Shown in pieces: positions 29,524-55,559 of a DNA stretch of 64,000 bases (positions are counted from its first letter, which is position 1; each line of letters begins with the position of its first letter). The stretch is from an uncultured delta proteobacterium. Lineage in GTDB: Bacteria > Desulfobacterota > Binatia > Binatales > Binataceae. The notes under the pieces were generated by a model. That model did not search any database and was not told the DNA's origin. It saw nothing but the letters and a program-made list of their open reading frames with translations. The stretch is from contig CAVQEQ010000003.1 in the NCBI GenBank assembly GCA_963711565.1, positions 64,001 to 128,000 on the forward strand, written 5' to 3'. The position numbers and the translations under genes are program-made.

Positions 29524-30573
29524 TCAGTCGGCAACCGCGTCTGCGATGCGTCGAGCGAGTTCCAGAAACGCGATGCTCGCCGGATGCGCCGGGTTCGCGA
29601 CGACAATCGGCATGCCGTCGTCGCCGGCCTGTCGCACGTCGGGGTAAATCGGAATCCTCGCGAGCAGTTCGGTCCCTTCCTCCGCGGCCATCCGCTCGCC
29701 GCCGCCGTAGCCGAAAAGTTCGTCGCGCTCGCCGCAATCGGGACAGACGAAATAACTCATGTTCTCGACCACGCCGAGAATCGGGCAATGCACCTGGCGA
29801 AACATCTTGACGGCGCGCGTCGCGTCGAGCAGCGCCACGTCCTGCGGCGTCGTCACGATCACGGCGCCATCGAGCGAGACCTGCTGTGCGAGCGTCAACT
29901 GCGCATCACCGGTGCCCGGTGGCAAGTCGACGATCAGGAAATCCTGCGAGCCCCACAGCGTGTCTTTGAGAAACTGCCGCACCGCACCCATCACCATCGG
30001 TCCGCGCCAGATGACGGGCGCCTTCTCGCCGAGAAAAAATCCGATCGAGATCAGCTTCACGCCGTACTTCTCGATCGGGTAGAAATTCTGCCCGCCCGCC
30101 GACTTCGGCCGCTCGTCTCCGACGTTGAACATCATCGGCACCGACGGCCCGTAGATGTCGGCGTCGAGCAGGCCGACGCTGAGCCCCAGGCGCGCGAGCG
30201 CCACCGCGATATTCGCCGCGATCGTGGATTTGCCGACACCGCCCTTGCCGCTGCCCACTGCGATGATGTGCTTGGTACCTTCGAGGCGCACGCGCCCGGT
30301 TTTCTCGCCGAGCTCAGCTTCGATCCGATGCACCCGCAATTCGACGCTCGGCACGCCAAGGTCGTGGGTCAGCGCGCGATGGATGCTTGCCGCGAGCTCG
30401 CGGATCACCTCATCGCGCTCGGTAACCTGTCGCAGGGTGATCGCATACCCGCCATTTTGCGTCGGCTGCGCATCCTCGACCAACCCAAGCGCGACGATGT
30501 CAGCCGAGTACCCGGGATACTTTACGTGTCCAAGAGCCTCGATAACCGCGTCGTTAGGAACCTGCCGTGCCAC
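29524..30573 (-). CDS. mrp: Mrp/NBP35 Fe-S cluster carrier ATPase
   Basis: [38 protein letters not shown]. Confidence 0.93.
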
Positions 30574-30598
30574 TTATGCAATTATCGCAGATGCATTA

Positions 30599-30628
30599 GC
30601 GCGTCGAAAGCATCGGCAACGGCGGCCG
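30599..30628. repeat. Segment X upstream of mrp (duplicated at 31416)
   Basis: gcgcgtcgaaagcatcggcaacggcggccg versus gcgcgtcgaaagcat-ggcgacggcggccg. Confidence 0.8.
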
Positions 30629-30668
30629 CCTCCGCTTGCGGTGCGGTGCTCTGCAGCGCGCTTACTGT

Positions 30669-30697
30669 TTGACGGTAACCGCGTGGCGCATTACGAT
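30669..30697 (+). promoter_or_regulatory. Sigma70-like promoter and operator of higBA
   Basis: TTGACG-17-TACGAT; spacer holds the imperfect palindrome gtaaccgcgtggcgcattac; ATG 6 nt after the -10. Confidence 0.65.
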
Positions 30698-30703
30698 ACG
30701 ATT

Positions 30704-30985
30704 ATGATCAAGAGCTTTCGCGACTCCCGCGCAAAGGCTCTGTTCGATCAACGGGACGTGCCGGCGTTGCGGCATATCGAGCGAGCGGCGCGGCGGAAAC
30801 TGGAAGCGTTGGATTCGGCGCTCCAACTCGGGGATCTCGCGGCTTCGCGAGGCAATCATTTGGAAGCCTTGAAGGGTAGCCGTGTCGGGCAGCACAGCAT
30901 TCGAATCAATGAACAATATCGAATCTGTTTCGTGTGGCAAAAGGGCGACGCGGCAGACGTCGAGATAGTCGATTACCACCGGTGA
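30704..30985 (+). CDS. higB: HigB (RelE/ParE-superfamily) toxin
   Basis: MIKSFRD, GNHLEALKG, GQHSIRINEQYRICF, DVEIVDYH. Confidence 0.92.
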   Translation: MIKSFRDSRAKALFDQRDVPALRHIERAARRKLEALDSALQLGDLAASRGNHLEALKGSRVGQHSIRINEQYRICFVWQKGDAADVEIVDYHR

Positions 30986-31005
30986 GGTGCCTGGAGAAAT
31001 TAAAA

Positions 31006-31317
31006 ATGGCGAATGCAAAAAAACTGTCCCCTATTTTTCCGGGCGAGATATTGAACGAGGATTACCTGATTCCCGCCGGCATCAGCATCAACCGGCTCGC
31101 GATGGACATTCATGTGCCGGTCTCGCGCGTCTATGAGATCGTTAAAGGCGAGCGCGCGATCACAGCGGACACGGCGCTGAGACTGGCGCGATACCTTGGC
31201 ACGACAGCAGAGTTCTGGATGAACTTGCAGACGAAGTACGAACTGCGCAAAGCTACAGACGAACGTGCCGCGAAGATTGCCGTCGAGGTACGTCCGCTCG
31301 CTGCAGCCGGACGCTGA
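31006..31317 (+). CDS. higA: HigA antitoxin (XRE HTH)
   Basis: PGEILNEDYL, GERAITADTALRLARY, FWMNLQ. Confidence 0.93.
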   Translation: MANAKKLSPIFPGEILNEDYLIPAGISINRLAMDIHVPVSRVYEIVKGERAITADTALRLARYLGTTAEFWMNLQTKYELRKATDERAAKIAVEVRPLAAAGR

Positions 31318-31332
31318 ACGACGCCGCACATC

Positions 31333-31414
31333 TCAAGCCTTCGTCGCCTTGATCGAAAAGATCGTCGGGATTCGGATCGCCTTCGATGTGCCACAGCCCG
31401 TCGCTGCTCTGCTT
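31333..31414 (-). pseudogene. Displaced duplicate (Y') of the 3' end of the methyltransferase at 32056-32850
   Basis: 82 bp matching 32056-32136 with 4 substitutions and 1 insertion, including the stop codon. Confidence 0.9.
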
Positions 31415-31415
31415 G

Positions 31416-31444
31416 GCGCGTCGAAAGCATGGCGACGGCGGCCG
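31416..31444. repeat. Segment X' (copy of 30599-30628)
   Basis: See X; directly fused to Y'. Confidence 0.8.
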
Positions 31445-31496
31445 ATGATTCGTTGACAACCGATACCGGTCAGCAGACATAATAAACGCACTCCGC

Positions 31497-31751
31497 ATGA
31501 AGAATCGCGCCTACATAGTGAACGCTTTCTGGGACACGGAAGCTAAAGTTTGGGTCGCTACCAGCGACAACGTCCCAGGACTCGCCACCGAAGCGCGAGA
31601 CGTTGACGTGCTAATCAAAAAACTCCGCGTCATGATTCCAGAGCTTCTCGAAGCCAACGGGCTTTTACCGCGCAAGCGCGGCCGCGCCGTCCTCGACGTT
31701 CCCTTCGAAGTTCGCGCCGAGTATCACGAGCGCCTTCGACTGCAGGCCTGA
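31497..31751 (+). CDS. DUF1902 / short HicB-like antitoxin
   Basis: AFWDTEAKVWVATSDNVPGLATEA, IPELLEANG. Confidence 0.85.
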   Translation: MKNRAYIVNAFWDTEAKVWVATSDNVPGLATEARDVDVLIKKLRVMIPELLEANGLLPRKRGRAVLDVPFEVRAEYHERLRLQA

Positions 31752-31831
31752 GGAAACTGCATAGGGGGAATTTAATTCCCCCGTTTACGCAGTACTCCGG
31801 GCTGGTTAGGTTCGAATCTCGGAGTCGCACC

Positions 31832-32029
31832 GTGTCGCAGAGCTTTACTCCCCAATTAAAGAAGATCCTGAGAAGCGCTGGCTGTACTTTCGTCCGCCAT
31901 GGAAAAGGCGATCACGAAATCTGGATCAATCCTGCCACTCGGAAACAATTCACCGTCGACGGCAAAATTCTGTCTCGACATACCGCCAACGCGGTGCTCA
32001 AGGAAGCGGGCCTCCCCAAAGCCTTCTAG
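31832..32029 (+). CDS. hicA: HicA-family toxin
   Basis: GCTFVRHGKGDHEIW, HTANAVLKEAGL. Confidence 0.9.
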   Translation: MSQSFTPQLKKILRSAGCTFVRHGKGDHEIWINPATRKQFTVDGKILSRHTANAVLKEAGLPKAF

Positions 32030-32055
32030 TCGCGCACAGGTCGCGACTCCTTCGA

Positions 32056-32850
32056 TCAAGCCTTCGTCGCCTTGATCGAGAAGATCGTCGGAATCGGGTC
32101 GCCTTCGATATGCCACAGCCCGTCGCTGCTCTGCTTCATGAATGGAAAATGCGGGTAGCTGCACTCCGCGAATTCGTGCAGGAACTCGATTCTTAGCCCC
32201 GTCGCCGCCAGCGCACTAACAACGTCGCCGATCCGATACATCCATTCGTGTGTCTCGGAAACTATCTTGCTGTGATCCGAGTAGTCAGGCCCCGGCGGAT
32301 CCTCGCGCATCGCCGTATGGAAGTACGAAATCTCGAACTCGAGCTTGGTCGTCCCCGCGCGATTCGCGCTCATCTGGGTGAGCGGATGAAACTCCGCGAT
32401 GTAGAAGAAGCCGCCCGGTTTGACGAAGCTTGCGGCGACTTGCGCCCATCGCGTGATATCGGGCAGCCAGCACAGCGCGCCGTACAACGTGAAGACGATG
32501 TCGAATTGCTCGCGCAGGACGTTAGGAGCGTCGTAAATGTTCGACTGCACGAATCGCGCAGGAATTTTCAGCTCCGCGCTGATCGAGCGCGCCAGCGCGA
32601 TCGCCTTATCGGAAAAGTCCACGCCGGTTACGTTCGCGCCCAGCCGTGCCCACGACATCGTGTCGAGTCCGAAGTGGCACTGCATGTGCAACAGCGACTT
32701 GCCGCGAACGTCGCCGACCTCGCGCAGCTCGATCGGCTTGAGCACGTTCTCCCCCGCCTTAAACTCCGCCAGCAGATACTCCGGCGACGCCGCGTGATAC
32801 CCGGTCATCAGGTTCCACGCGTCGAGATTGACTTTCAGCCGCTCGTCCAT
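32056..32850 (-). CDS. Class I SAM-dependent methyltransferase
   Basis: LHMQCHFGLDT, TGVDFS, FDIVF, KPGG..YIAEFHP. Confidence 0.9.
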   Translation of the reverse strand: MDERLKVNLDAWNLMTGYHAASPEYLLAEFKAGENVLKPIELREVGDVRGKSLLHMQCHFGLDTMSWARLGANVTGVDFSDKAIALARSISAELKIPARFVQSNIYDAPNVLREQFDIVFTLYGALCWLPDITRWAQVAASFVKPGGFFYIAEFHPLTQMSANRAGTTKLEFEISYFHTAMREDPPGPDYSDHSKIVSETHEWMYRIGDVVSALAATGLRIEFLHEFAECSYPHFPFMKQSSDGLWHIEGDPIPTIFSIKATKA

Positions 32851-32860
32851 CGCAGCGGCT

Positions 32861-33021
32861 CTAGCAGGCTGTTGAAAAAGTAATTTTCAACGCCTGCTCC
32901 CTCTCTCTTGTCTCCCCCAAAGGGGGAGATGTTGTAGGTAGGAAGACAACTGCTACGCAGAGTGTTGAAGCGCTTGAAATCAAATCCACGAGTTGCATCG
33001 AGTTCTTCAACACCCTGCTAG
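32861..33021. mobile_element. IS5/IS1182-like MITE (153 bp) with CTAG direct repeats
   Basis: CTAG|caggctgttgaaaaa ... ttcttcaacaccctg|CTAG; terminal IRs 13/15 identical; no transposase. Confidence 0.8.
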
Positions 33022-33437
33022 GGGCGCTCCTGGCTGTAATCCCACGAGACCGTGTGTGCGGGCTTGAAGCTTACCACCACGACCTTGTTGCCCTTGAGCG
33101 ACTTCGCGTAGGCCTTGCCGAGCTTCTTTCCCAGGTACTCGATCGCCATCCGCTCGGTGCGCTTGTCGTCAACTTTTTCCTCGAGCGTGACGCGTCCCTT
33201 CAGCACCACCGTCTTGTACGGCGCCTTCTTGGTATCGACCACCAGCGTGACGCGCGGGTCGCGCACCAGGCACTTGTATTTAAACGCCTCGGCCGCCGTG
33301 TGGAACACGATCTGGCCGTCGGCATACTCGTACCAGGTCGGCACTGCGTGCGGCGCGCCGTCGGGCGCGGTGACGGCGACGACCGCGACGATCGGCTTCT
33401 TGAGCAGCTTCTCGATATCTTTTTTCTTCATCGGCAT
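33018..33437 (-). CDS. PPOX-class (pyridoxamine 5'-phosphate oxidase-like) F420/FMN oxidoreductase
   Basis: PDGAPHAVPTWY, KYKCLVRDPRVTLVVD, SWDY. Confidence 0.85.
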   Translation of the reverse strand: MPMKKKDIEKLLKKPIVAVVAVTAPDGAPHAVPTWYEYADGQIVFHTAAEAFKYKCLVRDPRVTLVVDTKKAPYKTVVLKGRVTLEEKVDDKRTERMAIEYLGKKLGKAYAKSLKGNKVVVVSFKPAHTVSWDYSQERP

Positions 33438-42583: not shown

Positions 42584-43387
42584 TTGATTCTTGTCTTTTA
42601 CGCGTTCGCGCGGGAGATCGCGCCATTCAAGCGTCGCCTTCGCAATCGTGCTCCGCTCGCTCTCGACGACTTGCATGGCTTCCGCGCGGAGATCGGCGGC
42701 AAAGATTTTGCGGTCATCGGGCACGGAATCGGTCATCGACGCGCAACCGAAGCCGCGCGCCGTGCGTTCGATCGAATGCCCGGAGCAGAATTGGTAATCG
42801 GCACCGGCGTCGTTGGCGCGCTGTCGAGCGGACTAAAGCCCGGCGATCTCGTCCTCTCCGATCGTGTCTTGACGATTCATACGGACAGCACGCTGGCGGA
42901 AGAAGGGACAGCCGTCAGCGACGTGCACCTGCGCGCCGTCGGCCGATCGCTCACGAGCGCGAGGATTGCGTACTCAACCGGTGCGATCCTGACCTCGCAT
43001 CGCGTGCTCGCCACCGGCGCCGAGAAACGACGCGCCAAGGAAAGCACCGGCGCGATCGCGGTCGATATGGAAACTGCCGCGGTGGCCGCGGAAGCCGCTG
43101 CGCGCGGACTTCCGTTCGTCGCGATTCGCGCCGTGCTCGACGAAGTTGACGACGAAGTGGTGGCCGCCGCGATGGCTGACGAAGACGGCAACGTGCGGCC
43201 GCTCGCCGCGACGTCGTACCTGATTCGCAACCCGGCGACGATGCTGAAGCTGCCGCGGATGATGCGAAACCTTTCGCGCGCAACAGCTTCGATCGCCGAC
43301 GCACTCACGGCCATCGCGCACGAGGGCAAGCTTCCTGCAGCCGCTAAGCGTGCTCGCGCGCCGGTGGAGCGAAAGCCCCCGCGCTGA
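42584..43387 (+). CDS. hpnG: Nucleoside phosphorylase/nucleosidase, HpnG-like (start uncertain)
   Basis: GVVGAL..GLKPGDLV, AVDMET, IRAVLD; hopanoid context. Confidence 0.65.
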   Translation: MILVFYAFAREIAPFKRRLRNRAPLALDDLHGFRAEIGGKDFAVIGHGIGHRRATEAARRAFDRMPGAELVIGTGVVGALSSGLKPGDLVLSDRVLTIHTDSTLAEEGTAVSDVHLRAVGRSLTSARIAYSTGAILTSHRVLATGAEKRRAKESTGAIAVDMETAAVAAEAAARGLPFVAIRAVLDEVDDEVVAAAMADEDGNVRPLAATSYLIRNPATMLKLPRMMRNLSRATASIADALTAIAHEGKLPAAAKRARAPVERKPPR

Positions 43388-44138
43388 ACCCGCCGTCAAT
43401 CGGCACCGCGATGCCCGTGATGAACCCCGCCTCGTCCGACGCAAGGAACGCCGCGAGCGCGCCGACCTCTTCCGGCTTGCCGTTGCGCCCGAGCGGATGC
43501 ATGTTGCCGGTGCGTTCCCACACCAACTGCGACGCGCCGGCGGGAACGGTATTGCAATTTTCCGCGATTGGCGTCTCGATGACGCCGGGGCAAATCGACA
43601 CGCATCGAATCTTATGGCGCGCGAAGTCGAGCGCGATTCCCTTCGACATGATCACGACGCCGCCCTTCGCTGCCTGGTAGGCGCCGAGATTCGGCACGCC
43701 CTCGATTCCTGCGCCGCTGGCGGTGTTGATGATCACGCCGCCGCCCTGCTTGATCATTTGCGGGATCGCATACTTGCAGCCGAAGAACACGCCCTTCAGG
43801 CACACGTCCACGACCCAATCCCATTCTTCCTCGCTCGTGTCGACCACGGTCTTGGGCACGAAAACGCCCGCGTTGTTGAACAGGATGTCGAGCCGGCCGA
43901 ACGCGCGGATAGTTTCGTTGACCATGCGCTCGACCTCGGCGCCGACGCGCACATCCACCGACACTGAGTTCGCGACGCCGCCGGCCTTCTCGATCTCGGC
44001 CGCCGTATTGCTCGCCGTCTCCGCGCGCACGTCGGCCACCATCACCTTCGCGCCTTCATGCGCGAACCGAATCGCGCTGGCGCGCCCGATTCCCGAACCC
44101 GCACCCGTGATTAACGCAACTTTGTCCTTGAGCAGCAT
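43344..44138 (-). CDS. Short-chain dehydrogenase/reductase
   Basis: TGAGSGIG, NNAG, YQAAK, PIDGG. Confidence 0.92.
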   Translation of the reverse strand: MLLKDKVALITGAGSGIGRASAIRFAHEGAKVMVADVRAETASNTAAEIEKAGGVANSVSVDVRVGAEVERMVNETIRAFGRLDILFNNAGVFVPKTVVDTSEEEWDWVVDVCLKGVFFGCKYAIPQMIKQGGGVIINTASGAGIEGVPNLGAYQAAKGGVVIMSKGIALDFARHKIRCVSICPGVIETPIAENCNTVPAGASQLVWERTGNMHPLGRNGKPEEVGALAAFLASDEAGFITGIAVPIDGGFSAGAFAPPAREHA

Positions 44139-44214
44139 TTCAGGTCACCTCGACTTTAGTCTTGGCCGGATGACCGACGCTTGCCACACTCGGCGGAGAT
44201 TTGAAAGCGCGCCG

Positions 44215-45114
44215 TTAGGCGGTGACGCTGCGCACCTTGTGTGTGCGCGCGCTCGTTGGCTTCCAGACAGGAAGATCTCGCTCGTAGGGAAAGTCCGCGA
44301 GATGCCGTTCGATCGCCGCGTCGTCGCCCCACGACTCGTGCCGCGTCAGGATATGAATCGCCAGTACCGTGAAGGGCAGGTAAATGAATATCCCGGCCCA
44401 TCCCACATTCGGCGCGTTGATTCGGAACAGCATCGTGATTCCGAAAATCACGATCCCGAAATAGAGCGCCGGACCAAGCAGCGCGCGCGAGCGCATCGCA
44501 GGAACAGAACCGGCGGGCTTCGCAGAACCGCGATTGAGCGACGCGTCGAGCCAATGGAAAATCGCAATCGTGATCGCCGCGACGAGATACCAACCGAGAT
44601 AGTTGGTGATCGGCACGCCGAAGTGCGGACCCGGCGGGTCGTACCAGAAAATCTTGCCGAGGAACCATCTGTCGCCGAGCACGCTCAGCGGATCGACGAC
44701 CATGTCCACCATCACCATGAACAGCGCCGCCATCAGCCATACCCGCGGCGCTCGGCGAATTTGCCACGTGTCGAGAATTCGGAAGTCAAAACCGCGCCGA
44801 TACAGCGGCGAGCTGAGCAGCAGCGCGACCGTGTAGCTGGCGAACGCGAGGAAGGTGAATGAGAGCGAATCCATGAACGGAACGCCGAAGACCCAGATCT
44901 CTCGGGCGCGGGTCGCTTCAATATAGTGATACAGGCCGAACGGGAACCCGTTGTGGATCGACGACCACTCGGACGCGAGCGAGACGGCGTAGGTGAGCAC
45001 GGTGAATAACAGCGTCGTGCGCAGGCCGAAGTTCACAACCGCGATAAACAGAAAACTCGCCAGGAAGATGAACACATACGGGCGCAGCGCGATCGTGGAC
45101 AACAGCAGATGCAT
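44215..45114 (-). CDS. CruF-like (DUF422, carotenoid biosynthesis) membrane protein
   Basis: GFPFGLYHY, GVPF, DMVVDP, FGVPITNYLGW; several TM helices. Confidence 0.75.
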   Translation of the reverse strand: MHLLLSTIALRPYVFIFLASFLFIAVVNFGLRTTLLFTVLTYAVSLASEWSSIHNGFPFGLYHYIEATRAREIWVFGVPFMDSLSFTFLAFASYTVALLLSSPLYRRGFDFRILDTWQIRRAPRVWLMAALFMVMVDMVVDPLSVLGDRWFLGKIFWYDPPGPHFGVPITNYLGWYLVAAITIAIFHWLDASLNRGSAKPAGSVPAMRSRALLGPALYFGIVIFGITMLFRINAPNVGWAGIFIYLPFTVLAIHILTRHESWGDDAAIERHLADFPYERDLPVWKPTSARTHKVRSVTA

Positions 45115-45122
45115 CGCCTTGC

Positions 45123-46127
45123 CTACGCGGCGCTCTTCGCCGGCCCTCTGGATCTGAAAAATTCGATAGCTGTCGCGATCGCGGCGTCGATCGGTCCGGG
45201 CGAATAGCCCAACTCCGCGCGCGCCTTCGACGAGTCGAAGAACATTCTCTTTCGCGCCATCCGCACTTCGGTCAGGCTGGCGCGTGGCGCGCGGCGCGTG
45301 ACGGTGCGCGCAAACGCTTCGGCGCCGAGCGCGTAGCCGAACGCTACCGCGTATGGAATTCGCACCTTCGGCCCAGGCATTCCTGAGATCGCCGCGAGCC
45401 GTCCCAGAAATTCCTTGAGCGTGAGATTCTCACCGCCCAAAATATATTTCTCGCCGATTCGTCCGCGCTCCGCCGCAAGCAGATGGCCGCGCGCGACATC
45501 TTCGACATCAACGATATTGAGCCCGGTCTCAACGTACGCCGGCATCCGCCGATTCAGGAAGTCCACGATGATTCTGCCGGTTGGCGTCGGCTTGAAGTCC
45601 AGCGCGCCAATCGGCGTCGAGGGATTCACAATCACCACCGGCGCGCCTGCCCGTGCGGCCTCGAGCGCCGCTTGCTCAGCCATGTACTTCGATCGTTTGT
45701 AATGACCCGGCATCGCGGCGAGCGACGACGGCGTGTCTTCGCGCCCCACTCCGCCATGCGGAATCCCGAGCGCCCCCACCGTGCTGGTATAGACGATTCG
45801 CGAAACTCCCGCATCGGTTGCGGCCCGGATAACATGCTGCGTGCCGGTGACGTTGGTCGCATACATCGGCGCCGGATCGGTCAGCCACAGCCGGTAGTCG
45901 GCGGCGACGTGATAGACCTCGTTGCATCCGTTCACCGCGCGCGCGACCGAATCGAAGTGCCGGAGATCGCCGCACACGATCTCGATCGGCAAACCGACCA
46001 GCGCACTCAGATCCGCGTTCTCGCGCGCCAGCACTCGCACGCGGTCGCCGCGGGCAAGCAGCGCGCGCACAACGTGACATCCAACGAATCCGTTGCCGCC
46101 CGTTACCAGCGCTAACCTGGTAGTCAT
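45123..46127 (-). CDS. hpnA: Hopanoid-associated sugar epimerase
   Basis: TGGNGFVG, HVAADYRLW, YKRSK, PTPTG. Confidence 0.9.
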   Translation of the reverse strand: MTTRLALVTGGNGFVGCHVVRALLARGDRVRVLARENADLSALVGLPIEIVCGDLRHFDSVARAVNGCNEVYHVAADYRLWLTDPAPMYATNVTGTQHVIRAATDAGVSRIVYTSTVGALGIPHGGVGREDTPSSLAAMPGHYKRSKYMAEQAALEAARAGAPVVIVNPSTPIGALDFKPTPTGRIIVDFLNRRMPAYVETGLNIVDVEDVARGHLLAAERGRIGEKYILGGENLTLKEFLGRLAAISGMPGPKVRIPYAVAFGYALGAEAFARTVTRRAPRASLTEVRMARKRMFFDSSKARAELGYSPGPIDAAIATAIEFFRSRGPAKSAA

Positions 46128-46142
46128 TCGATTAGTCAATAG

Positions 46143-47507
46143 CTATTCGGCGGGCCGCGCGAGAACGGCGGTTGCCGCGGCCCGTCCGGAAATCACAGCG
46201 CTCTCAATCGTCGCCGGCAGTTCCGTTTGTATCCAGTCGCCGGCCAGAAAGAAGTTCGCGATCGGCGTCTTCGCCGTCGGGCGCAATTCATGCGATCGAA
46301 GGTCCGGCGCCATCGTCGCGTTCTTCTCCTTGAGCACCAGCGACTTCACGACTCTGGCTTCGCGCGACGCTGGAATCATGGCGTGGAGATCGTTGATCAC
46401 GATATCAAGAATTTCCTGGTTGCTCCGATCGACCAGCTTACGCGCGCCGCTGATCACGAAACTAAGGTAACCCGGATGCGCCTCGCCGCGCTGCTCGAAT
46501 ATCCGGCGTTTGTTGAATAGCCATTGAGTAGTGGTGCCGATAAAGCCGATGAACGGCGAATTAGTCACTTCGCGATCGAGCCACACGTGGACGCAGATGA
46601 TCGGCGAGCTCGAAAGACCCGTGAAGCGAGAAAAAAATGGATCGGCGACCGCGTTTTCCGGCAGGAGTCGCAACAACTGCGGCGCCGGGACCGCGCTGAT
46701 GAAATCCGATGCCTCGACTCGACGCCCGTCGCGCAGCCGCACGCTTGCGACACGCCCTCCGGCGCCAAGTTCCAGCATCTCGACGATCGAATGCGAAGCA
46801 ACCGTCCCACCCGCCCGCTCAATCAAACGCTTCGCGCCTATGCAGTACAGGTCGCTCAGGCCGACGCGCGAATAGACGAATGCCGAGTCGCCGCGTCGCG
46901 AAAAAAATCCGCGCTTTAGAACTTCGGCCAACAACTGCGCCGATGACGATTCCGGCTCGTCGTTCAGCGTCGCGATCGACATTGGGTACCAAAAGCATCG
47001 GCGCGCATGTTCCGATTGCCCGAGACGATCCATCAACTGCGCGACGGTGAGATGGCGCAGTTCGCTTTTGCTGGAGCGTCTCATCGCGAGCATGCGAAGT
47101 CCGCCGCGCATGACGCTCATTCGCTCCGTGATAGTGAGATGCCGGTAGCCGAGCAGCGCGGCCGTCATGTGCAGAGGGCCCGGCAGGCGCGCGGTTTTCA
47201 GCACTGCACTTTGGCCGGCACCTGCGAGCATTTCGATCTCCAGATCCTCGTGAAACACCAGCTGATCGTAGGCGCCGATTCGCCGCAGAAAATCGAGCGT
47301 TTCAGTGTAACAACCCATCAGGACGTGCTGCCCATTGTCGACGAAATCGCCGGTGTCAGGATCGGCGAACGAATACGCACGCCCGCCAAGCGCGGGTTTC
47401 CCCTCGAGCACGGTGACCCGCACGCCTCTCTCTGCGAGCGCAACCGCCGCGCTCAGTCCCGCAAAGCCGGCGCCGATAACGACCGCATTTTTGGTCACGA
47501 CTGCCAT
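46143..47507 (-). CDS. hpnE: Hydroxysqualene dehydroxylase
   Basis: GAGFAGL, GGRAYS, VDNGQHVLMGCY, LAGDW...LPATIESAV.SG. Confidence 0.92.
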   Translation of the reverse strand: MAVVTKNAVVIGAGFAGLSAAVALAERGVRVTVLEGKPALGGRAYSFADPDTGDFVDNGQHVLMGCYTETLDFLRRIGAYDQLVFHEDLEIEMLAGAGQSAVLKTARLPGPLHMTAALLGYRHLTITERMSVMRGGLRMLAMRRSSKSELRHLTVAQLMDRLGQSEHARRCFWYPMSIATLNDEPESSSAQLLAEVLKRGFFSRRGDSAFVYSRVGLSDLYCIGAKRLIERAGGTVASHSIVEMLELGAGGRVASVRLRDGRRVEASDFISAVPAPQLLRLLPENAVADPFFSRFTGLSSSPIICVHVWLDREVTNSPFIGFIGTTTQWLFNKRRIFEQRGEAHPGYLSFVISGARKLVDRSNQEILDIVINDLHAMIPASREARVVKSLVLKEKNATMAPDLRSHELRPTAKTPIANFFLAGDWIQTELPATIESAVISGRAAATAVLARPAE

Positions 47508-48416
47508 TTATCCGCGGAGCGCGCTGAAGCGGCCCTCTGCCCACGCGCGGCCGACCAGGTAGAGCTTGTGCGGCGCGGACAGGCTGTGGCGGCGGTCGAG
47601 CACGCGATAGTTCGACTTGATGATTCGTTCGAGCAGCGCGGCGTAAATGAGGCGCATCGCTTCCGCGGTCAGCAGCGTCGCGCGATCTTCTGCCGCGAGT
47701 TCGCTCTGCGCCAGCGCGTAAAGTTCCCGCGCGCGCCGGGCCTCGAAGTCCATCAGGCCGACGAAGTTCGGCGTGTACACGCCGCCGAGAATTTCTTCCT
47801 CGCTCACGTTGAAGCGCGCGAGGTCTTCCAGAGGCAGATAAATCCGGCCGCGCTCGGCGTCCTCGCGCACGTCGCGCAGAATATTCGTCAGCTGAAGCGC
47901 CAGCCCGAGGTTTTCGGCGTAGAGCTTCGCCGACGGATTGCGGTAGCCGAAAATCTCGATGCAGATTAGGCCCAGCGCCGACGCGACGCGGTAACAGTAC
48001 GGCCGCAGTTCTTCCCAGCTCTGATAGCGCTTGCGCGAGAGGTCCATCTCCACACCGTTGATGATTTCCTCGAACAGCTCGCGCGGAATATGAAATCGCT
48101 TCGCGCTGTCGGCGAGGGCGCGGGAGAGCGCGCGTGTCGGCGCGCCCGCATACACGCGATCGAGTTCCTCGCGCCATCGCTTGAGCAACAGCGCCGGCTC
48201 GCGAATCGATTCGTCGTCGGCAATATCGTCGATGAAGCGGCAGAACGCATATACCGCGTGCAGCGCACGGCGCCGCTCGGGCGGCAGCAAAATGAACGCG
48301 TAGTAAAAGCTCGAACGCGATCGCCGCGTGACTTGCGCGCAGCGTTCGTAGTCAGCGTCGAGCGACGAGGCGTCGCTTCCGGCGAGTTCTTCAGAGGCCG
48401 GCGGCGTTGCTGTCAG
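47508..48416 (-). CDS. hpnD: Presqualene diphosphate synthase; probable CTG start
   Basis: YERCAQVTRRSRSSFYYAF upstream of the ORF-track start; YAFCRFIDDIAD, LQLTNILRDV.ED. Confidence 0.9.
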   Translation of the reverse strand: MTATPPASEELAGSDASSLDADYERCAQVTRRSRSSFYYAFILLPPERRRALHAVYAFCRFIDDIADDESIREPALLLKRWREELDRVYAGAPTRALSRALADSAKRFHIPRELFEEIINGVEMDLSRKRYQSWEELRPYCYRVASALGLICIEIFGYRNPSAKLYAENLGLALQLTNILRDVREDAERGRIYLPLEDLARFNVSEEEILGGVYTPNFVGLMDFEARRARELYALAQSELAAEDRATLLTAEAMRLIYAALLERIIKSNYRVLDRRHSLSAPHKLYLVGRAWAEGRFSALRG

Positions 48417-49339
48417 ACTTCAAGACGGCCACGGATCGCGCTCCATCCCAGTTTCAGGTAGTCGAGTTTCGTTAGTTCCGGACGCATCCGGAAAACGTCG
48501 TAGTTGACGCGATCGATCGCGCGCAGTATCGCCAGCCCGCCGCCCGCGAACATCACGATGTCGCGACGCAGTCGCTTGTCCACGCGCTTGTGCAGTTCTC
48601 CACCCTCGACGAGCATCGCGCGCGCGACCTCGACTTCGCGACGCATCAAGTCGATGAACTCGCGTCCGGACGTATGCGCCGTCAGGTCCGCAGGCGTCAC
48701 GCCGAATCGTTCCATGTCGCGGCGCGGAAAATAAATTCGTCCTTTGTCGAGATCGACGGCGACGTCCTGCCAGAAATTCGCGAGCTGCAATCCGCTGCAA
48801 ACGAGATCCGACAGACGCTGCCGCTCGGCGTCGCGATAGCCGAACAGGTAGAGCACGAGCCGGCCGACCGGATTCGCGGAGTAGCGTGAGTAACCGAGCA
48901 GGTCGTCGAGCGTGTCGAAGCCCTTGAAGTTCACATCGGAGCGAAACGCGGTCAGCAGATCCTTGAACGGCTCGCTCGGAATGTCGAAGCGGCGCACAGT
49001 ATCGGCGAGCGCAATGAACACCGGATGGCGCGGCGCGCCGGCATACGCCAAATCGAGCTCGCGCTCCCAATCGTCGAGCATCGCGAGGTCGTGATGCTCA
49101 TCGGCGAAGTCGTCAGCCATCCGCGCGTAGGCGTAAATCGCGTACATGTGCGGACGCATCTCGCGCGGCATCAGCCACGACGCCACGGTGAAATTTTCGT
49201 AGTGCGACTTCGCCAGCCGCGCGCAGAATTCGTACGCGCTCGCGACGTCGAACGTTCCCGCCGGCATCGACGCGTCCGGCGCCGCACTCGATGCGTACGA
49301 CATTACGCCGCCATCCACGTTGCCTCGCGCGGTTGCCAT
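48413..49339 (-). CDS. hpnC: Squalene synthase HpnC
   Basis: HYENFTVAS, YAYARMADD, SANPVGRLVL, LQLANFWQD. Confidence 0.93.
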   Translation of the reverse strand: MATARGNVDGGVMSYASSAAPDASMPAGTFDVASAYEFCARLAKSHYENFTVASWLMPREMRPHMYAIYAYARMADDFADEHHDLAMLDDWERELDLAYAGAPRHPVFIALADTVRRFDIPSEPFKDLLTAFRSDVNFKGFDTLDDLLGYSRYSANPVGRLVLYLFGYRDAERQRLSDLVCSGLQLANFWQDVAVDLDKGRIYFPRRDMERFGVTPADLTAHTSGREFIDLMRREVEVARAMLVEGGELHKRVDKRLRRDIVMFAGGGLAILRAIDRVNYDVFRMRPELTKLDYLKLGWSAIRGRLEV

Positions 49340-49343
49340 AGTC

Positions 49344-50513
49344 TCAGGCTGCCACCGGCCGCGCGGCGATAAGTTCGCGCGCCGCGGACCGCGCCCATCC
49401 GTCGGTTTCGAGGAGATCCTCGATCGTTTGCGCCGCTGAGTTGTGATGCCGATTCATCACCGTCTCGATATGGCGCGGGATGTCCATGAAGCGGACGCGT
49501 CCCGCCAAGAAGCCCGCGACCAGTTCTTCGTTGGCGGCGTTGAGGCATGCGGTCATTGTGTTGCCGGCCGCGAGCGCATCGTACGCCAGCCGCAGACACG
49601 GGAAGCGCCGCAGGTCGGGTTCTTCAAACGTCAGTCGCGAATTTTCCGCCAGCGACAGCGGTTTCAGATGCGTCATCGGCAGCCGCTCCGGATACGCGAG
49701 CGCGTACGCGACCGGAATCGCCATGTCGGGAATCGCCATCTCGGCGATCACCGAGCCGTCGATCATCTCGACCATCGAATGAATCACGCTCTGCGGATGA
49801 ATCACGACCGAGACTTCGCTCGCTTTCAGATCGAACAGCCAGCGCGCCTCGATCACCTCAAGCCCCTTGTTCATCAGCGTCGCGGAGTCGATCGTAATCT
49901 TGCTGCCCATCACCCAGGTCGGATGCTTCAGCGCCTGTTCAATAGTGATCGACTCGAAACGATCCGCCGGCAACTCGCGAAACGGGCCGCCTGACGCGGT
50001 CAAAATTATCCGCTTCAACGACTCGCGCCCGCGACCTTGCAGGCATTGAAAAACCGCGTTGTGCTCGCTGTCAACGGGCAATAACTGCACGCGATTCTCG
50101 CGCACCGCCGCCGTGATCAGCTCGCCCGCGATGACCAGCACTTCCTTGTTGGCGAACGCGATGTCCTTGCCGGACTTGATCGCGGCGAGCGTCGGCTGCA
50201 ATCCCATCGCGCCGACCAGCGCCGACATCACGAGCTTCGCCTCAGGATGCGTCGCGACCGCGATCGCGCCTTCGAGCCCGTGCATGATCGTCACGCGATG
50301 CGCGCCAAGGCGCGTCGCCAGTTCGCGCGCGAGTTCAGGCGTGGCCACCGAAACCAATTCGGGGCGAAATAGCTTTACTTGCTCAATCAGCAGATCCAGG
50401 TTGCGTCCCGCCGCCATCGCGACGACGCGAAACCGGTCGCGGAAGCGGCCGACTACGTCGAGCGTCGTGACGCCGACCGAGCCGGTCGAGCCGAGAATTG
50501 AAATCGCCTTCAT
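49344..50513 (-). CDS. dxr: 1-deoxy-D-xylulose-5-phosphate reductoisomerase
   Basis: LGSTGSVG, ANKE, PVDSEH, KITIDSATLMNKGLE, NAANE. Confidence 0.97.
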   Translation of the reverse strand: MKAISILGSTGSVGVTTLDVVGRFRDRFRVVAMAAGRNLDLLIEQVKLFRPELVSVATPELARELATRLGAHRVTIMHGLEGAIAVATHPEAKLVMSALVGAMGLQPTLAAIKSGKDIAFANKEVLVIAGELITAAVRENRVQLLPVDSEHNAVFQCLQGRGRESLKRIILTASGGPFRELPADRFESITIEQALKHPTWVMGSKITIDSATLMNKGLEVIEARWLFDLKASEVSVVIHPQSVIHSMVEMIDGSVIAEMAIPDMAIPVAYALAYPERLPMTHLKPLSLAENSRLTFEEPDLRRFPCLRLAYDALAAGNTMTACLNAANEELVAGFLAGRVRFMDIPRHIETVMNRHHNSAAQTIEDLLETDGWARSAARELIAARPVAA

Positions 50514-50523
50514 CGTAACTCGT

Positions 50524-52482
50524 TCAGTTCGACGCCGTCTCCGCCAACCGCTTGCGGAAGCGCCCGAGCGCCATCAACGGAAAGTAGTGCGCGTACATGT
50601 GGTAGCGAAGATAGAAATGATTCGGAAACCCGTTGCCGGTCGATTCCCGCTCGTCCCATACGCCTTCGTCGTTCTGCCGCTCTGAGAGCCATTGCGCACC
50701 GCGCATCGCACTTTCGCCGATGCCTTCTTCACCGGCGATCAATCCGATCAGTCCCCACGCCGTTTGCGACGCGGTGCTGGCGCCGCGGCCGTGCCAGGCC
50801 GGATCTTTGTCGGAGAGCGGACTCTCGCCCCATCCGCCGTCCGGATTCTGCTTCGACTTGAGCCACGCGACGGCGCGCTTGATCCATGGCTCATTGATAT
50901 CGACGCCGATTGCGCGCAGACCGGACAGCGCCGAGAACGTGCCGTAGATATAATTGACGCCCCAGCGTCCCCACCATCCGCCCGCCGGCGACTGATTCTT
51001 CTTGAGCCACTCGATCGCGCGCTTCGCCACGGGATGCTCGGTTCGATAGCCGACCGCTGCCATCATCTCGAGCACGCGACCGGTGAGGTCGGGGCACGAC
51101 GGATCGGTTACCGCTTCAACGTCCGCCAACGGCAGATGATTGAGCCAGGTTGAATCGTTGTCAGTGTCGAAGGCCGCGAAGCCGCCGTCCTTCGATTGCA
51201 TTCCCATCACCCAGTTCGCGCCTGTGCGAACGGCGCGTTCCTTCGCCGCCGGATCGGTCGCGTTCGAGTCCGCAAGCACTGACAGGATTACGGCGGAATC
51301 GTCAACGTCGGGATAGCAATCGTTGTAGAACTGGAACGCCCAGCCGCCGGGTTCGAGGTCGGGGCGTTTAACCGACCAATCGCCCTTCTTGAAAATCTGA
51401 TGATCGATCAGCCACCGCGAGGTCTTCTTGAGCGCCTCATCGTCGCCGGAGAGGCCAGAATCGAGCAGCGCGCGTCCGGCGAGCGCGGTGTCCCAGTTGA
51501 CCGAGACGCACGGCATGTACATGTCGTAATCGTCGAAATGCCAAATCAGTTCTTGCGACGCCTCGATCGCGCGCTTCAGCACCGGATGGTCGTTGCGGTA
51601 GCCGTTGGCTTTCAGAGCCATCGCGCTCAAAAGGTAGCACGGCTCGATCCCGCCCCACGAGCCGTTTGCCTCCTGATGCTCGAGCAGCCATTCCTCGGTG
51701 TGACGCAGCGCACGGGCGCGCAGAGATTTTATTTTGTGCCGATCGTAAAAGCGCAGCGCCTTGTCGGCGAAGTTAAGCGCATTGCGCAATGACAGCAGAT
51801 GTTTTCCGCGTGGCTGCTTGAACTTCGTGAAGTGCGGCGGCTCGATGTAGAGCTCCAACACTCCGCGCTGGTAGTCGATCTTTTTTTCGGGACGCGCCGC
51901 TTGCAGCATCATCAGTCCCATCAAGGTTCCACGCGCCCACGAGCCCAATTCGTAGATGTTGAACGGGAACCAGTTCGGAAAAAGCGAGAGCTCGACCGGC
52001 AGTGCGGCCGTCGCGTCCCAGGTGATCTGGCCCATCGACGCCAGGTAGAAGCGCGCCAGCGTCCCGCATTTCACGATGCCACCCTTCGACAGAATCCAGC
52101 GCCGCGCAGCCGCCAGCGGCTCGTCGCCCGCGCGCATCCCGGTGAGCTTCAGCGCAAAATAACTTTCGATCGTCGTCGAGAGATACCCTTCGCCACCCTG
52201 GTAGAGCGCCCAACTGCCGTCCGGACTTTGGATGTCGAGCAAGTGCTTCTTCAGGCGCGCCTCGGTCTCGAGGTCAACCGTGTCCATGAAATGATTGAAG
52301 ATGATGAACTCCGCGTTCATCTCCGCGTTGGCCTCCAGCGGCGCGTGCCAATAGCCCTCGGGTTTCTGCAGCGCGAGCAGAGCGCGTTGCGCACGATCGA
52401 CGGTGTAGTCAATCTTCGCCACGAACTCCTCATGCGGCGACATCGCGATCGCGGTGTTTCCAATTTCGATAGCCTGACTCAT
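50524..52482 (-). CDS. shc: Squalene-hopene cyclase
   Basis: DVDD catalytic motif, QW repeats (QNPDGGWGE), RWGVNYIYGT. Confidence 0.96.
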   Translation of the reverse strand: MSQAIEIGNTAIAMSPHEEFVAKIDYTVDRAQRALLALQKPEGYWHAPLEANAEMNAEFIIFNHFMDTVDLETEARLKKHLLDIQSPDGSWALYQGGEGYLSTTIESYFALKLTGMRAGDEPLAAARRWILSKGGIVKCGTLARFYLASMGQITWDATAALPVELSLFPNWFPFNIYELGSWARGTLMGLMMLQAARPEKKIDYQRGVLELYIEPPHFTKFKQPRGKHLLSLRNALNFADKALRFYDRHKIKSLRARALRHTEEWLLEHQEANGSWGGIEPCYLLSAMALKANGYRNDHPVLKRAIEASQELIWHFDDYDMYMPCVSVNWDTALAGRALLDSGLSGDDEALKKTSRWLIDHQIFKKGDWSVKRPDLEPGGWAFQFYNDCYPDVDDSAVILSVLADSNATDPAAKERAVRTGANWVMGMQSKDGGFAAFDTDNDSTWLNHLPLADVEAVTDPSCPDLTGRVLEMMAAVGYRTEHPVAKRAIEWLKKNQSPAGGWWGRWGVNYIYGTFSALSGLRAIGVDINEPWIKRAVAWLKSKQNPDGGWGESPLSDKDPAWHGRGASTASQTAWGLIGLIAGEEGIGESAMRGAQWLSERQNDEGVWDERESTGNGFPNHFYLRYHMYAHYFPLMALGRFRKRLAETASN

Positions 52483-52492
52483 GTTTCACCCT

Positions 52493-53560
52493 TCAAGGAA
52501 TCACGGCGCATTTCAGAACCACACCGCGCTCGAGCATCTCGAACACTTCCGCCAGATCGCCCAGGCGCATTCGCGCGTTGACGATCGCGCCCGCATTGAG
52601 CGCGCGCCCCGCCAGCAATTCGTAAGCGCGGCGCACATCGCGCGGCCGATAATGAAACGGCGCCATCAAGGTCAGATTGTCGTAATGCATCCGCCGCGTA
52701 TCGAGGCTGAGCGCGGTGCCGGCCGGACATCCACCGAAAAAAACCACCCGTCCTCCGCGCCGCACCCGCGCGAGCGCATCCTGCCATCCTTCGACTTGCC
52801 CGGTGCACTCGATCACGAGGTCGGGGCCGAAGCCGCCGTTGAGCCGCGCGATTTCCGCTGCGGCATCGACGCCGGCTGCATCGACGACACGATCCGCTCC
52901 CAAGTCCGCGGCCCACTTAAGGCGCTTAGTCCCCCGACCGACGACCACCACCTCGCGCACGCCCGCGGCCTTCAGCACCAACATTTGCAGCAGGCCGAAC
53001 GCGCCGCCGCCGATGATTGCGACAGTCTCGTTTTTCTCTGGACGCGCCATTTCCTGAGCATGAATCACGCAGGAGAGCGGCTCGAGCAGCGCGGCTTCCT
53101 CGAACGGCAGGTCAGCGGGCTTGATAAAAGTGTTGCGCGCGACAACGTGCGCCGGCAGCAGCAGCATGTCGGCATAGCCGCCGTGGACCATCCGCCCGAG
53201 CGCGTCGTCGCAAAGATTTTCCTGCCCATGCTGGCAGTAGAAACAGATTCCGCACGGCGCAGTCGGCGCCGCCATGATCTCGTCGCCCAGCTTGAAGGCG
53301 GTCACGCCTTCGCCCGCTTCCACTACGACGCCGGAAAACTCGTGCCCGAAGGGCATCGGAAGTTTCCAGACCGGATGGCCGCGGCGAAATGTTTTCAGAT
53401 CTGTGCCGCAACTGAGCGCGCACTTGATTTGAATCAGCAACTCGCCGGGTCCCGGATGCGGCGCGACGTAGTCGCGCAACTCGAGGCGTCCCGGCTCGAC
53501 GAGCACGGCCTGGCGCGATTGCGCGCGCGCAATTTTCGCCGACGCTTCGAGCGCGCTCAC
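52493..53560 (-). CDS. Zn-dependent polyol/alcohol dehydrogenase (MDR)
   Basis: CGTD, GHE, CGICFYC...C, EPLSC, GGGAFG. Confidence 0.9.
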   Translation of the reverse strand: MSALEASAKIARAQSRQAVLVEPGRLELRDYVAPHPGPGELLIQIKCALSCGTDLKTFRRGHPVWKLPMPFGHEFSGVVVEAGEGVTAFKLGDEIMAAPTAPCGICFYCQHGQENLCDDALGRMVHGGYADMLLLPAHVVARNTFIKPADLPFEEAALLEPLSCVIHAQEMARPEKNETVAIIGGGAFGLLQMLVLKAAGVREVVVVGRGTKRLKWAADLGADRVVDAAGVDAAAEIARLNGGFGPDLVIECTGQVEGWQDALARVRRGGRVVFFGGCPAGTALSLDTRRMHYDNLTLMAPFHYRPRDVRRAYELLAGRALNAGAIVNARMRLGDLAEVFEMLERGVVLKCAVIP

Positions 53561-54447
53561 AGTTTGCGCTCCACGACGAACGTCGCGATATGCCGCAGCG
53601 GGTCGGCGCGATCGCCGAGACCTTGCAGCGCGCGATGCGCGCGCGTTTCGAGCTCGCGCGCCAAATCCATCGAGCGCTCGATTCCCAATATCGCCGGGTA
53701 GGTCGCCTTGCCGCGCTCGAAATCTTTTTGCGTGCGCTTGCCCATCTGCTCCGGCGTGCCTTGAACGTCGAGCAGATCATCGACCACCTGGAACGCCAGC
53801 CCGAGCGCGCGCGCGTACACGTCGAGCGACTCGATCTGCGACGCGCTCGCGCCGCCGAGCCGCGCGCCCCCGCGCACCGACGCGAGGAACAGAGCTCCGG
53901 TCTTCTTGCCGTGCAGTTCTTCGAGTTCTTCCACCGTTTTCGATTTGCCCTCGCCGAGCAGATCGATCACCTGCCCAGCGACCATCCCGCCGGCTCCTGC
54001 CGCGGTCGCCAGCTCCGCGACAGTTTCGAGCACGAGTGCCGGCGACGCGCTCTTGTTCGCCGAAAGCGCGAGCACCTTGAACGCGTCCGTCAACAGCGCG
54101 TCGCCCGCGAGCGTCGCGATCGCTTCGCCGTAAACCTTGTGATTGGTCGGGCGCCCGCGGCGCATGTCGTCGTCGTCCATGCACGGCAGGTCGTCGTGAA
54201 TCAGCGAGTAGGTGTGAATCATCTCGACCGCGCACGCGAGTCCCATCGCCGCATCGACGTTGCCGCCGACCGCCTCGCACGACGCGAGCACGAGCACCGG
54301 CCGCAGCCGCTTGCCGCCCGCCAGCAGCGAGTAGCGCATCGCCTCATGCAGGCGCGCCGCCGCGCCGGTCGGTTCCTCGACGCTTTGCTTGAGGGCCCGC
54401 TCGATCGTATGCGCGCGCTCCTTCAAATAGCTGTGCAAGTCGAACAC
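53557..54447 (-). CDS. ispA: Farnesyl-diphosphate synthase
   Basis: GGKRLRP, HDDLPCMDDDDMRRG, KTGA, FQVVDD. Confidence 0.92.
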   Translation of the reverse strand: MFDLHSYLKERAHTIERALKQSVEEPTGAAARLHEAMRYSLLAGGKRLRPVLVLASCEAVGGNVDAAMGLACAVEMIHTYSLIHDDLPCMDDDDMRRGRPTNHKVYGEAIATLAGDALLTDAFKVLALSANKSASPALVLETVAELATAAGAGGMVAGQVIDLLGEGKSKTVEELEELHGKKTGALFLASVRGGARLGGASASQIESLDVYARALGLAFQVVDDLLDVQGTPEQMGKRTQKDFERGKATYPAILGIERSMDLARELETRAHRALQGLGDRADPLRHIATFVVERKL

Positions 54448-54554
54448 GTCTCGTCTCTTATCCAGATGCCGGTGACGCTTCTTTGAAACCGGGATTGTTT
54501 CGCGCGTGAAGATTCCCCCACATCGCGGGGTTCACGGGTCAGCTGCGCGATTTC

Positions 54555-55559
54555 CTACGCGACGTAGTGCCGCACCATCCGCCACGAGTCCTTCAGATTC
54601 TGGCCGAACTCGAGCGCCACCGTCCCCTCAAATCCCGAATGCAGCTTGCAATCGCGGCAGCGGAAATCCTGCTTGGTACGATAATACTCCCAATCAGTAG
54701 CCGCGTGCATCTCGTTGAGCGTCTTGTAGTGTCCGTTGGTGATCAGGTAGCACGGCCCCTTCCATCCCTGCGGATTGCGCGTGACCGTCGTCCACGGACT
54801 GCATTGCATGTCGCGTTTGCCGACCAGGTAATCGAGATAAATCGGCGTGTTGATAATCTTGTAGTCGTTCGCCATGTCGCGAACCTTGAAGAACTTCGCC
54901 GGCATCTCTTCCTTCTTCAGATACTCCTCGTCGTTCTGCAGCACCTGGTAGTGATAGCCGGGACTGAGCAGCATGCCGTCGACGCCGAGGCTGGTCAGGT
55001 ACTTGACCATGTCCTCGAGCTCATCGCCCGTGGTCTCGCGGAACACCGTCGTGTTGGTCTGCACGCGGTAGCCCTTCTCCTTCAGCATCTTGATCATCTT
55101 GACGACGATGTCGAAATGACCCACGCGGTCGGTCACGCGATCGTTGGTCTCGCGCATCCCATCAAGGTGCAGGTTGAAGCTGAGATAGGGACTCGGCGGC
55201 ACCTGCTTGACGAAGCGCTCGAGCAGGATCGCGTTGGTGCAGATCATCACGTGACGCTTTTGATCCTCGATCAATCCGCGCGTCAGCGCCGCGATATGCT
55301 TGTACATCAGCGGCTCGCCGCCGCAGATCGATACGATCGGCGCGCCGGCTTCTTCCGCCGAATGCAGCGCCTCGTCGAGCGGCATCATGTCGCGAATGGT
55401 GTCCTTGTACTCGACGATTCGCCCGCATCCGATACACGCGAGATTGCACGCATGCAGCGGTTCGAGCATCAGCACCAACGGAAAATATTTTTCACCTGAT
55501 TTTCTCTTGGCGCGCATATAGCGCCCCAGGTCGATCATCTGTCTAAGCGGAATGCGCAT
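54555..55559 (-). CDS. hpnH: Adenosyl-hopene transferase (radical SAM)
   Basis: PLVLMLEPLHACNLACIGCG, GGEPL, CSPW, PCYL, CRDCKLHSGFE. Confidence 0.9.
   Translation of the reverse strand: MRIPLRQMIDLGRYMRAKRKSGEKYFPLVLMLEPLHACNLACIGCGRIVEYKDTIRDMMPLDEALHSAEEAGAPIVSICGGEPLMYKHIAALTRGLIEDQKRHVMICTNAILLERFVKQVPPSPYLSFNLHLDGMRETNDRVTDRVGHFDIVVKMIKMLKEKGYRVQTNTTVFRETTGDELEDMVKYLTSLGVDGMLLSPGYHYQVLQNDEEYLKKEEMPAKFFKVRDMANDYKIINTPIYLDYLVGKRDMQCSPWTTVTRNPQGWKGPCYLITNGHYKTLNEMHAATDWEYYRTKQDFRCRDCKLHSGFEGTVALEFGQNLKDSWRMVRHYVA

Follow-up and report, generated by a model that had tools for sequence, protein, structure and literature searches.

Two toxin-antitoxin pairs joined head to tail at a variable chromosomal spot in a Binataceae bacterium, probably by additive stacking of sibling alleles

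The analysed window, a stretch of 64,000 nucleotides from the genome of an uncultured delta proteobacterium of the family Binataceae living in soil (genome G000), contains between mrp and a methyltransferase gene two unrelated toxin-antitoxin (TA) pairs, each enclosed by copies of the same two pieces of flanking host sequence. The data given below support well the view that sibling alleles of a variable spot were stacked here additively. Ordinary recombination most likely added a relative's version of the spot beside the resident one, by a known route and with no dedicated gene-capture enzyme. As to the route itself, we suppose that two natural alleles were joined head to tail when a fragment of a closely related strain formed a transient circle, which a single crossover in the methyltransferase end then brought into the chromosome, and we assign to this reading a probability of about 0.52.

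The build-up of chromosomal TA modules without mobile elements is an open point in TA biology, and the locus is a clean wild example of small TA modules piling up in this way. The natural series of alleles at the spot (empty, single, stacked in both orders, and eroded) could help to tell recombination that adds from recombination that replaces, and to examine a possible influence of addiction on which of the two results. The routes in question are already known from the laboratory; the locus extends current views rather than overturning them.

Organisation of the locus and its central junction

The left flank of the locus is the persistent gene mrp (apbC, NUBPL P-loop NTPase; 29524..30573, minus strand; Mrp/NUBPL, PF10609, E 1e-99). 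The first unit begins upstream of it with X (30596..30628, plus strand), whose left part lies within a motif conserved genus-wide (36 metagenome and 36 genome records), the likely mrp promoter. A sigma-70-like promoter of higBA (TTGACG-17-TACGAT, 30669..30697, plus strand) overlaps a short inverted repeat kept in relatives, which is a possible operator; the promoter scan returned two sites against 1.1 expected, so that the site carries little weight by itself. It precedes a higB-like predicted toxin gene (93 aa, 30704..30985, plus strand; PF05015, E 1e-14), the higA antitoxin gene (103 aa, 31006..31317, plus strand; HTH_3, TIGR02607 over cut-off) and Y' (31333..31414, minus strand), a defunct duplicate of the methyltransferase gene's final 81 nt, with four substitutions and one inserted base. 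The second unit comprises the second copy of X, X' (31413..31444, plus strand), a DUF1902 gene for a likely HicB-type antitoxin (84 aa, 31497..31751, plus strand; PF08972, E 3e-22; PDB 1wv8, TTHA1013, E 9e-16), the hicA predicted toxin gene (65 aa, 31832..32029, plus strand; PF07927, E 4.5e-11) and Y, i.e., the last 81 nt (32056-32136) of the class I SAM methyltransferase gene (264 aa, 32056..32850, minus strand; Methyltransf_11, PF08241). The right flank is again persistent, a PNPOx-like gene (33018..33437, minus strand; PF01243) present in 37 genomes.

By their operon-borne toxin and antitoxin domains both pairs are predicted type II TA systems, HigBA and HicAB. It is the genomic context that makes a HicB role likely for the DUF1902 protein, and DUF1902 genes adjoining hicA are on record (PMC10865869). 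The gap between these two genes, shorter in G011 and G069, holds a hairpin (31745-31803; z -2.2, with 4 of 200 shuffles equally good) that could damp toxin expression.

Self-comparison of the locus put the repeats at the positions proposed in an earlier sequence-only reading of the window. Y' (82 nt) matches Y in 77 of 82 columns (E 1e-30), the longest identical run being about 27 nt, and X' matches X in 30 of 33 columns (E 1e-6). The direct fusion of Y' to X' and the two head-to-tail units of 816 and 721 bp, which that reading had also claimed, were likewise confirmed, and its claim that the locus lacks transposase and integrase agrees with a family scan in which no such family appeared among the 70 ORFs of the window. 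The join (31413..31416, no strand assigned) is non-homologous: TT at 31413-31414 is common to both partners, and the microhomology amounts to two bases if exact and to 5 of 6 if imperfect (TGC-TT/TGCATT).

The Y'/X' junction is real and fixed in the lineage of the window. Single Logan contigs, i.e., assembled sequences and not raw reads, in which rare forms drop out, bridge it with at least 31 nt on each side in seven of eight runs, belonging to seven studies (P1-P7); the eighth run, X14, has no cover at the junction, and the eight do not include X15-X20, whose shares were small. This answers at contig level the call of the sequence-only reading for long or paired reads across the join. In run X1, which may be the source sample, one contig of depth 168.8 extends across 30130-32707, and in X1 and X2 the depth is uniform across both units. 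An artificial merging of two strains during assembly might be suspected of a metagenome-assembled genome in which repeats bound each unit; the bridging contigs and the single depth rule such a chimera out at contig level and leave it a negligible probability. Two joints in run X8 that skip both modules were considered as alleles of the same strain and rejected: their letters differ, their depth is low, and they seem to come from other species.

A variable spot in the genus and the origin of the two units

The variable spot spans the interval from mrp to the PNPOx-like gene, and the methyltransferase gene is itself dispensable cargo. The 5' end of mrp was found in 45 of 47 genus genomes and a methyltransferase match, remnants counted, in 29 of 47 (both tallies take in the unpublished G018 and G023, on which alone no statement made here depends). 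The methyltransferase gene, which the sequence-only reading had taken for a fixed flank, is thus absent from many relatives or present in them only as remnants. Of 38 mrp-anchored intervals, 34 closed on the methyltransferase or the PNPOx-like gene, and the open ones (G010, G013, G024, G025) were left out. The closed intervals comprise five empty ones, five with the methyltransferase only, nine with hig-type and six with hic-type modules only, three with both, and six with other cargo, so that the claimed variability of the mrp/methyltransferase gap is borne out: relatives are empty there or carry a single TA pair or other genes. The description of the gap as a TA exchange hotspot holds as regards its variability and fails as regards its restriction to TA genes, as genes for a nitronate monooxygenase, a glyoxalase, a PMT_2 membrane protein and BrnTA are found there too. 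BrnTA, a third TA family, lies on the PNPOx side of the spot in the deep-branching L059 (G016) and L060 (G015). The PMT_2 gene stands behind a hicB promoter in L043 (G031), L044 (G028), L077, L081 and L102; it is fused in G031 to a hicB start remnant, and a start remnant of nitronate monooxygenase follows it.

Single-unit alleles with different TA cargo, which had been named in advance as support for exchange at the spot, exist at genus level for both unit types: X-higBA-Y-methyltransferase in G022, L074, L103 and L105, and X-hicBA-Y-methyltransferase in L071 and L079. Arrays of three scar-separated units, named for the same purpose, are absent from the 34 genome intervals and from 36 metagenome loci, some of the latter probably duplicating the genomes. 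Mapped on a core tree of 30 genomes, hig shows no fewer than 7 changes and hic no fewer than 8; this and the other trees are quick IQ-TREE reconstructions with many open forks, from which genomes lacking a gene were left out. Erosion is as common at the spot as stacking, the eroded forms including orphan higA (G019, G030, G032, G070, L076, L080), truncated hicB (G020, L078) and internal deletions of the methyltransferase gene (G027, G062). Most of the change at the spot probably consists of plain replacements and deletions that take place between mrp and PNPOx, the two persistent flanks.

All three genomes that have both a hig-type and a hic-type module contain a remnant of the methyltransferase end between them. 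In G000 this scar measures 82 bp and is accompanied by X'; in G011 it measures 46 bp and the order is reversed, with hicBA first; in G070, which retains an orphan higA, it measures 15 bp and stands in a 28-nt context identical to that of the sister genome G009. As the three belong to separate mrp clades, their scars differ in length and one order is reversed, stacking has recurred and is not site-specific. In the tree of hicBA the copy of G000 groups with that of G011 (96), in conflict with the core tree. At L080, a metagenome locus, higA and hicBA occur together with no methyltransferase scar and only an 8-bp repeat, which was matched by 3 of 300 shuffles and could stem from an insertion or from a deletion. 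In L045 (G014), L078 and L046 (G008) hicBA lies between 17-bp direct repeats that co-vary with the empty site of the lineage; the repeats of G014 and L078 match the empty site of close relatives in 17 of 17 and 16 of 17 positions, respectively (0 of 300 shuffles), and could reflect insertion and deletion alike.

The sequences of the two units suggest two working alleles from close strains rather than a local duplication that then decayed. Relative to Y, Y' has four synonymous changes and an indel (P ~0.03 for four of four synonymous alone), or, under another gap placement of equal cost, three synonymous changes and one non-synonymous change, and the intact methyltransferase genes of relatives vary at the sites concerned. 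These mostly synonymous differences indicate an allele of a related strain. The nearest match of Y' is Y of the same genome (77/82), the best other match being 73/82; for the tail of X', the genome's own X is no closer than L091 (a tie among 73). The distance from X' to the hicB promoter is 21 nt against 20-22 nt in G011, G020, G069, L071, L079, L089 and L094, and the spacer between hicA and Y matches that of natural single alleles. The additive entry of a related strain's allele, as the sequence-only reading had proposed, is therefore most likely, each unit also occurring as a single allele in relatives.

Routes to the stacked arrangement

The supposed events are as follows. Linear DNA of a donor, which would be a near-conspecific strain, would have been trimmed and ligated by Ku and LigD, which would create the Y/X join; the resulting circle may then have been inserted by a RecA crossover, located either in Y or in a longer duplication that deletions afterwards shortened. 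Additive products would likely be favoured over replacement, loss of the resident TA pair being costly, as the orphan higA alleles suggest. The genome contains adjacent, open ku and ligD genes over the cut-off (G000:C3:589734-591108), which attests their presence and gives no evidence of their use. ComEC and DprA are open as well, also a matter of gene presence; they occur in 10 of 14 controls too, and their weight is correspondingly small.

The circle followed by a single crossover is preferred because in Escherichia coli this route gave duplications, whereas the one-sided linear route gave deletions (PMC3240628). In those experiments with linear DNA of one-sided homology, 56 of 60 recombinants were duplications formed via recircularisation and a single crossover, measuring 109-950 bp, and HFIR, with deletion, was found in 4 of 60 (PMC3240628). 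A circular intermediate, offered as an example in the sequence-only reading, is thus the most likely route and fits the E. coli duplications; the intermediate itself is supposed. Against this route, the homology shared is only 81 bp against 109-950 bp in E. coli, unless it was later trimmed, and neither a circle joint nor a single-unit allele of the same species was present in the contigs of the eight runs, where rare forms are lost and uncovered parts are uninformative. L080, with higA and hicBA but no methyltransferase scar, and the tie of the X' tail between its own X and L091 also weigh against it. In G011 and G070 the methyltransferase gene is of its own lineage right from Y, with no donor tract running in, which fits a crossover inside the duplication, as this route predicts, and which would be uninformative if the donors were conspecific. 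A sliding-window donor search in G000 was equally uninformative, G000 having no close relative.

The same final structure could also result, with no circle, from a linear donor attached at both ends, at one by a long homologous anchor lying in the methyltransferase gene or mrp and at the other by a microhomology join, either in an HFIR-like manner or by unequal exchange between two sister copies. We regard this as possible, and as a minority option. It accords with the imperfect microhomology at the Y'/X' join, with fused remnants such as the hicB start on the PMT_2 gene of G031, and, weakly in view of the controls, with the open ComEC and DprA genes; a comparable route was proposed for Vibrio T6SS immunity arrays (PMC5361080), and HFIR is also treated in PMC2884548 and PMC6382021. 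For HFIR a long one-sided anchor and a microhomology of 3-10 bp would be expected, to be compared with the two exact, or 5 of 6 imperfect, bases at the join. Against it, HFIR is predicted to delete recipient DNA rather than duplicate it, as in the four E. coli events (PMC3240628), and the methyltransferase genes of G011 and G070 lack a foreign tract. A purely internal origin, i.e., tandem duplication of an X-cargo-Y unit by microhomology followed by replacement of one cargo or by reciprocal loss from an ancestral higBA-hicBA array, would account for Y' being closest to its own Y, for the presence of both modules with no methyltransferase scar in L080, and for the frequency of deletions in this interval (truncated hicB, orphan higA, losses inside the methyltransferase gene). 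We nevertheless find it unlikely, since the changes in Y' are synonymous and do not look like random decay, the spacers from X' to hicB and from hicA to Y resemble those of natural single alleles and not fresh deletions, and G011 has the reversed order.

The head-to-tail units with matching ends, together with nine tyrosine recombinase matches elsewhere in the genome, might suggest that an integron-like system, or site-specific cassette machinery of another kind, acts in trans. This is very improbable and, in the form of a site-specific element, was rejected: the junction differs from stack to stack (82, 46 and 15 bp), no IntI match (TIGR02249) exceeded the cut-off in the genome, and the nearest recombinase is far from the locus. 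In motif scans, attC core motifs occurred only inside higB and in the hicB-hicA gap, with no attC-type pair at the unit borders, and an exact-motif scan of 30574-32140 for dif-like sites (pdif XerC/D modules) found no XerD half-site. The term integron-like stockpile, used in the sequence-only reading, finds no support, on the same grounds and for want of a three-unit array in the intervals and loci compared.

Related systems and gene-end copies elsewhere in the genome

The locus works like an insertion with long target duplication, a class which Furuta, Abe and Kobayashi (2010) defined on restriction-modification genes (PMC2853133), and stands outside that set because its cargo consists of TA pairs. 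Common to both are a small addictive module, a long target duplication of variable length with slightly diverged copies, and the absence of mobile-element genes, which holds at the window locus. The published limits (insert below 20 kb, duplication above 30 bp) include G000, with duplications of 82 and 32 bp around units of 721-816 bp, and G011 (46 bp), while the 15 bp of G070 fall short. Insert-free alleles with a single copy of the target are known from other species (G022, L071, L079), those of the same species being missing from the eight runs. Different here is that what was inserted is another allele of this very spot, complete with its two flanks, and that the event recurred in either order.

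The recircularisation and single crossover of Amarir-Bouhram, Goin and Petit (2011) likewise duplicate a homologous piece and leave one new, illegitimate junction (PMC3240628), as is found at the window locus; theirs was laboratory conjugation in E. coli with duplications of 109-950 bp, whereas we deal with wild scars of 15-82 bp and an unseen intermediate. In the T6SS effector-immunity arrays of Vibrio cholerae, attributed to displacement by HFIR (Kirchberger et al., 2017, PMC5361080), modules stacked at one fixed locus without an integrase leave gene-end remnants too, the protective gene is kept, and the authors compare the arrays with integrons. There, however, the previous effector is pushed out and lost in part; at our locus both modules are whole, and host sequence next to the anchor is duplicated instead of being deleted, as HFIR would have it. 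The TA-only islets between core genes (Belot et al., 2026, PMC13617665), which spread through recombination at the core genes on either side, share with the spot a small interval between persistent genes, rapidly changing content, a lack of mobile genes and toxin erosion. Additive stacking with a gene-end scar does not appear in the searched text of that paper, where the words tandem and illegitimate have no match. Our literature search found no published account of the locus; closer TA parallels may exist in the supplements to PMC2853133 and PMC13617665.

Copies of gene ends occur elsewhere in the genome. An automated scan of the last 200 nt of 3276 genes, in which queries with more than four hits were left out, returned 21 gene 3' ends with a nearby direct non-genic copy, 19 of them downstream, and none with an inverted copy; the mid-gene control gave five direct and no inverted copies. 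These 21 are automated matches, some of which resemble paralogue remnants. Pooled over the hits, pN/pS is 0.27, a departure from neutral decay with synonymous drift at P 2.5e-6. The scan with its controls replaced a hand-picked set (11 of 95 candidates) because of selection bias. Individual cases of gene-end duplication around small cargo were noted at ten loci of G000 (L111, L112, L113, L114, L115, L116, L117, L118, L119 and L123), with scars behind or before genes for a P450, RNase G, gtrA, a glycine-oxidase-like protein, ispF, clpA, accD and others; among the scanned cargo genes there was no recombinase. At a further locus, L110 (G000:C3:311927-313926), an MqsR/MqsA pair lies behind rnhB, and after it comes a scar of 90 bp from the interior of rnhB. 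The candidacy of this locus as a second stacking spot found no support, as neither cargo nor scar is shared by any of the 40 relatives compared (40 of 46 fetched; two with short contigs), and its neighbours differ from those of all 40.

It is conceivable, and in our opinion doubtful, that the locus exemplifies a gene capture general to the Binataceae and to common enzymes, in which circles made by Ku and LigD would be inserted by RecA behind any gene of which they hold the end, with TA addiction selecting additive rather than replacing products, so that spots would grow in an integron-like way without integrase. The three stacks, the 17-bp repeats of G014 and L078 and the approximately 20 downstream gene-end scars would then be its footprints.

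Two other features of the window may be mentioned. Between the methyltransferase and PNPOx-like genes lies a MITE-like repeat (32865..33017, no strand assigned), which is about 153 bp long, has terminal inverted repeats and is placed between two CTAG motifs, of which the right-hand one is the stop codon of PNPOx; it has eight genome matches at 93-100%, most of them with TAG or CTAG flanks, is missing at the same place in relatives, and plays no part in the stacking. Further to the right, positions 43347-55559 hold an ordinary hopanoid biosynthesis cluster with genes for squalene-hopene cyclase, two squalene synthases, dxr and a radical SAM protein.
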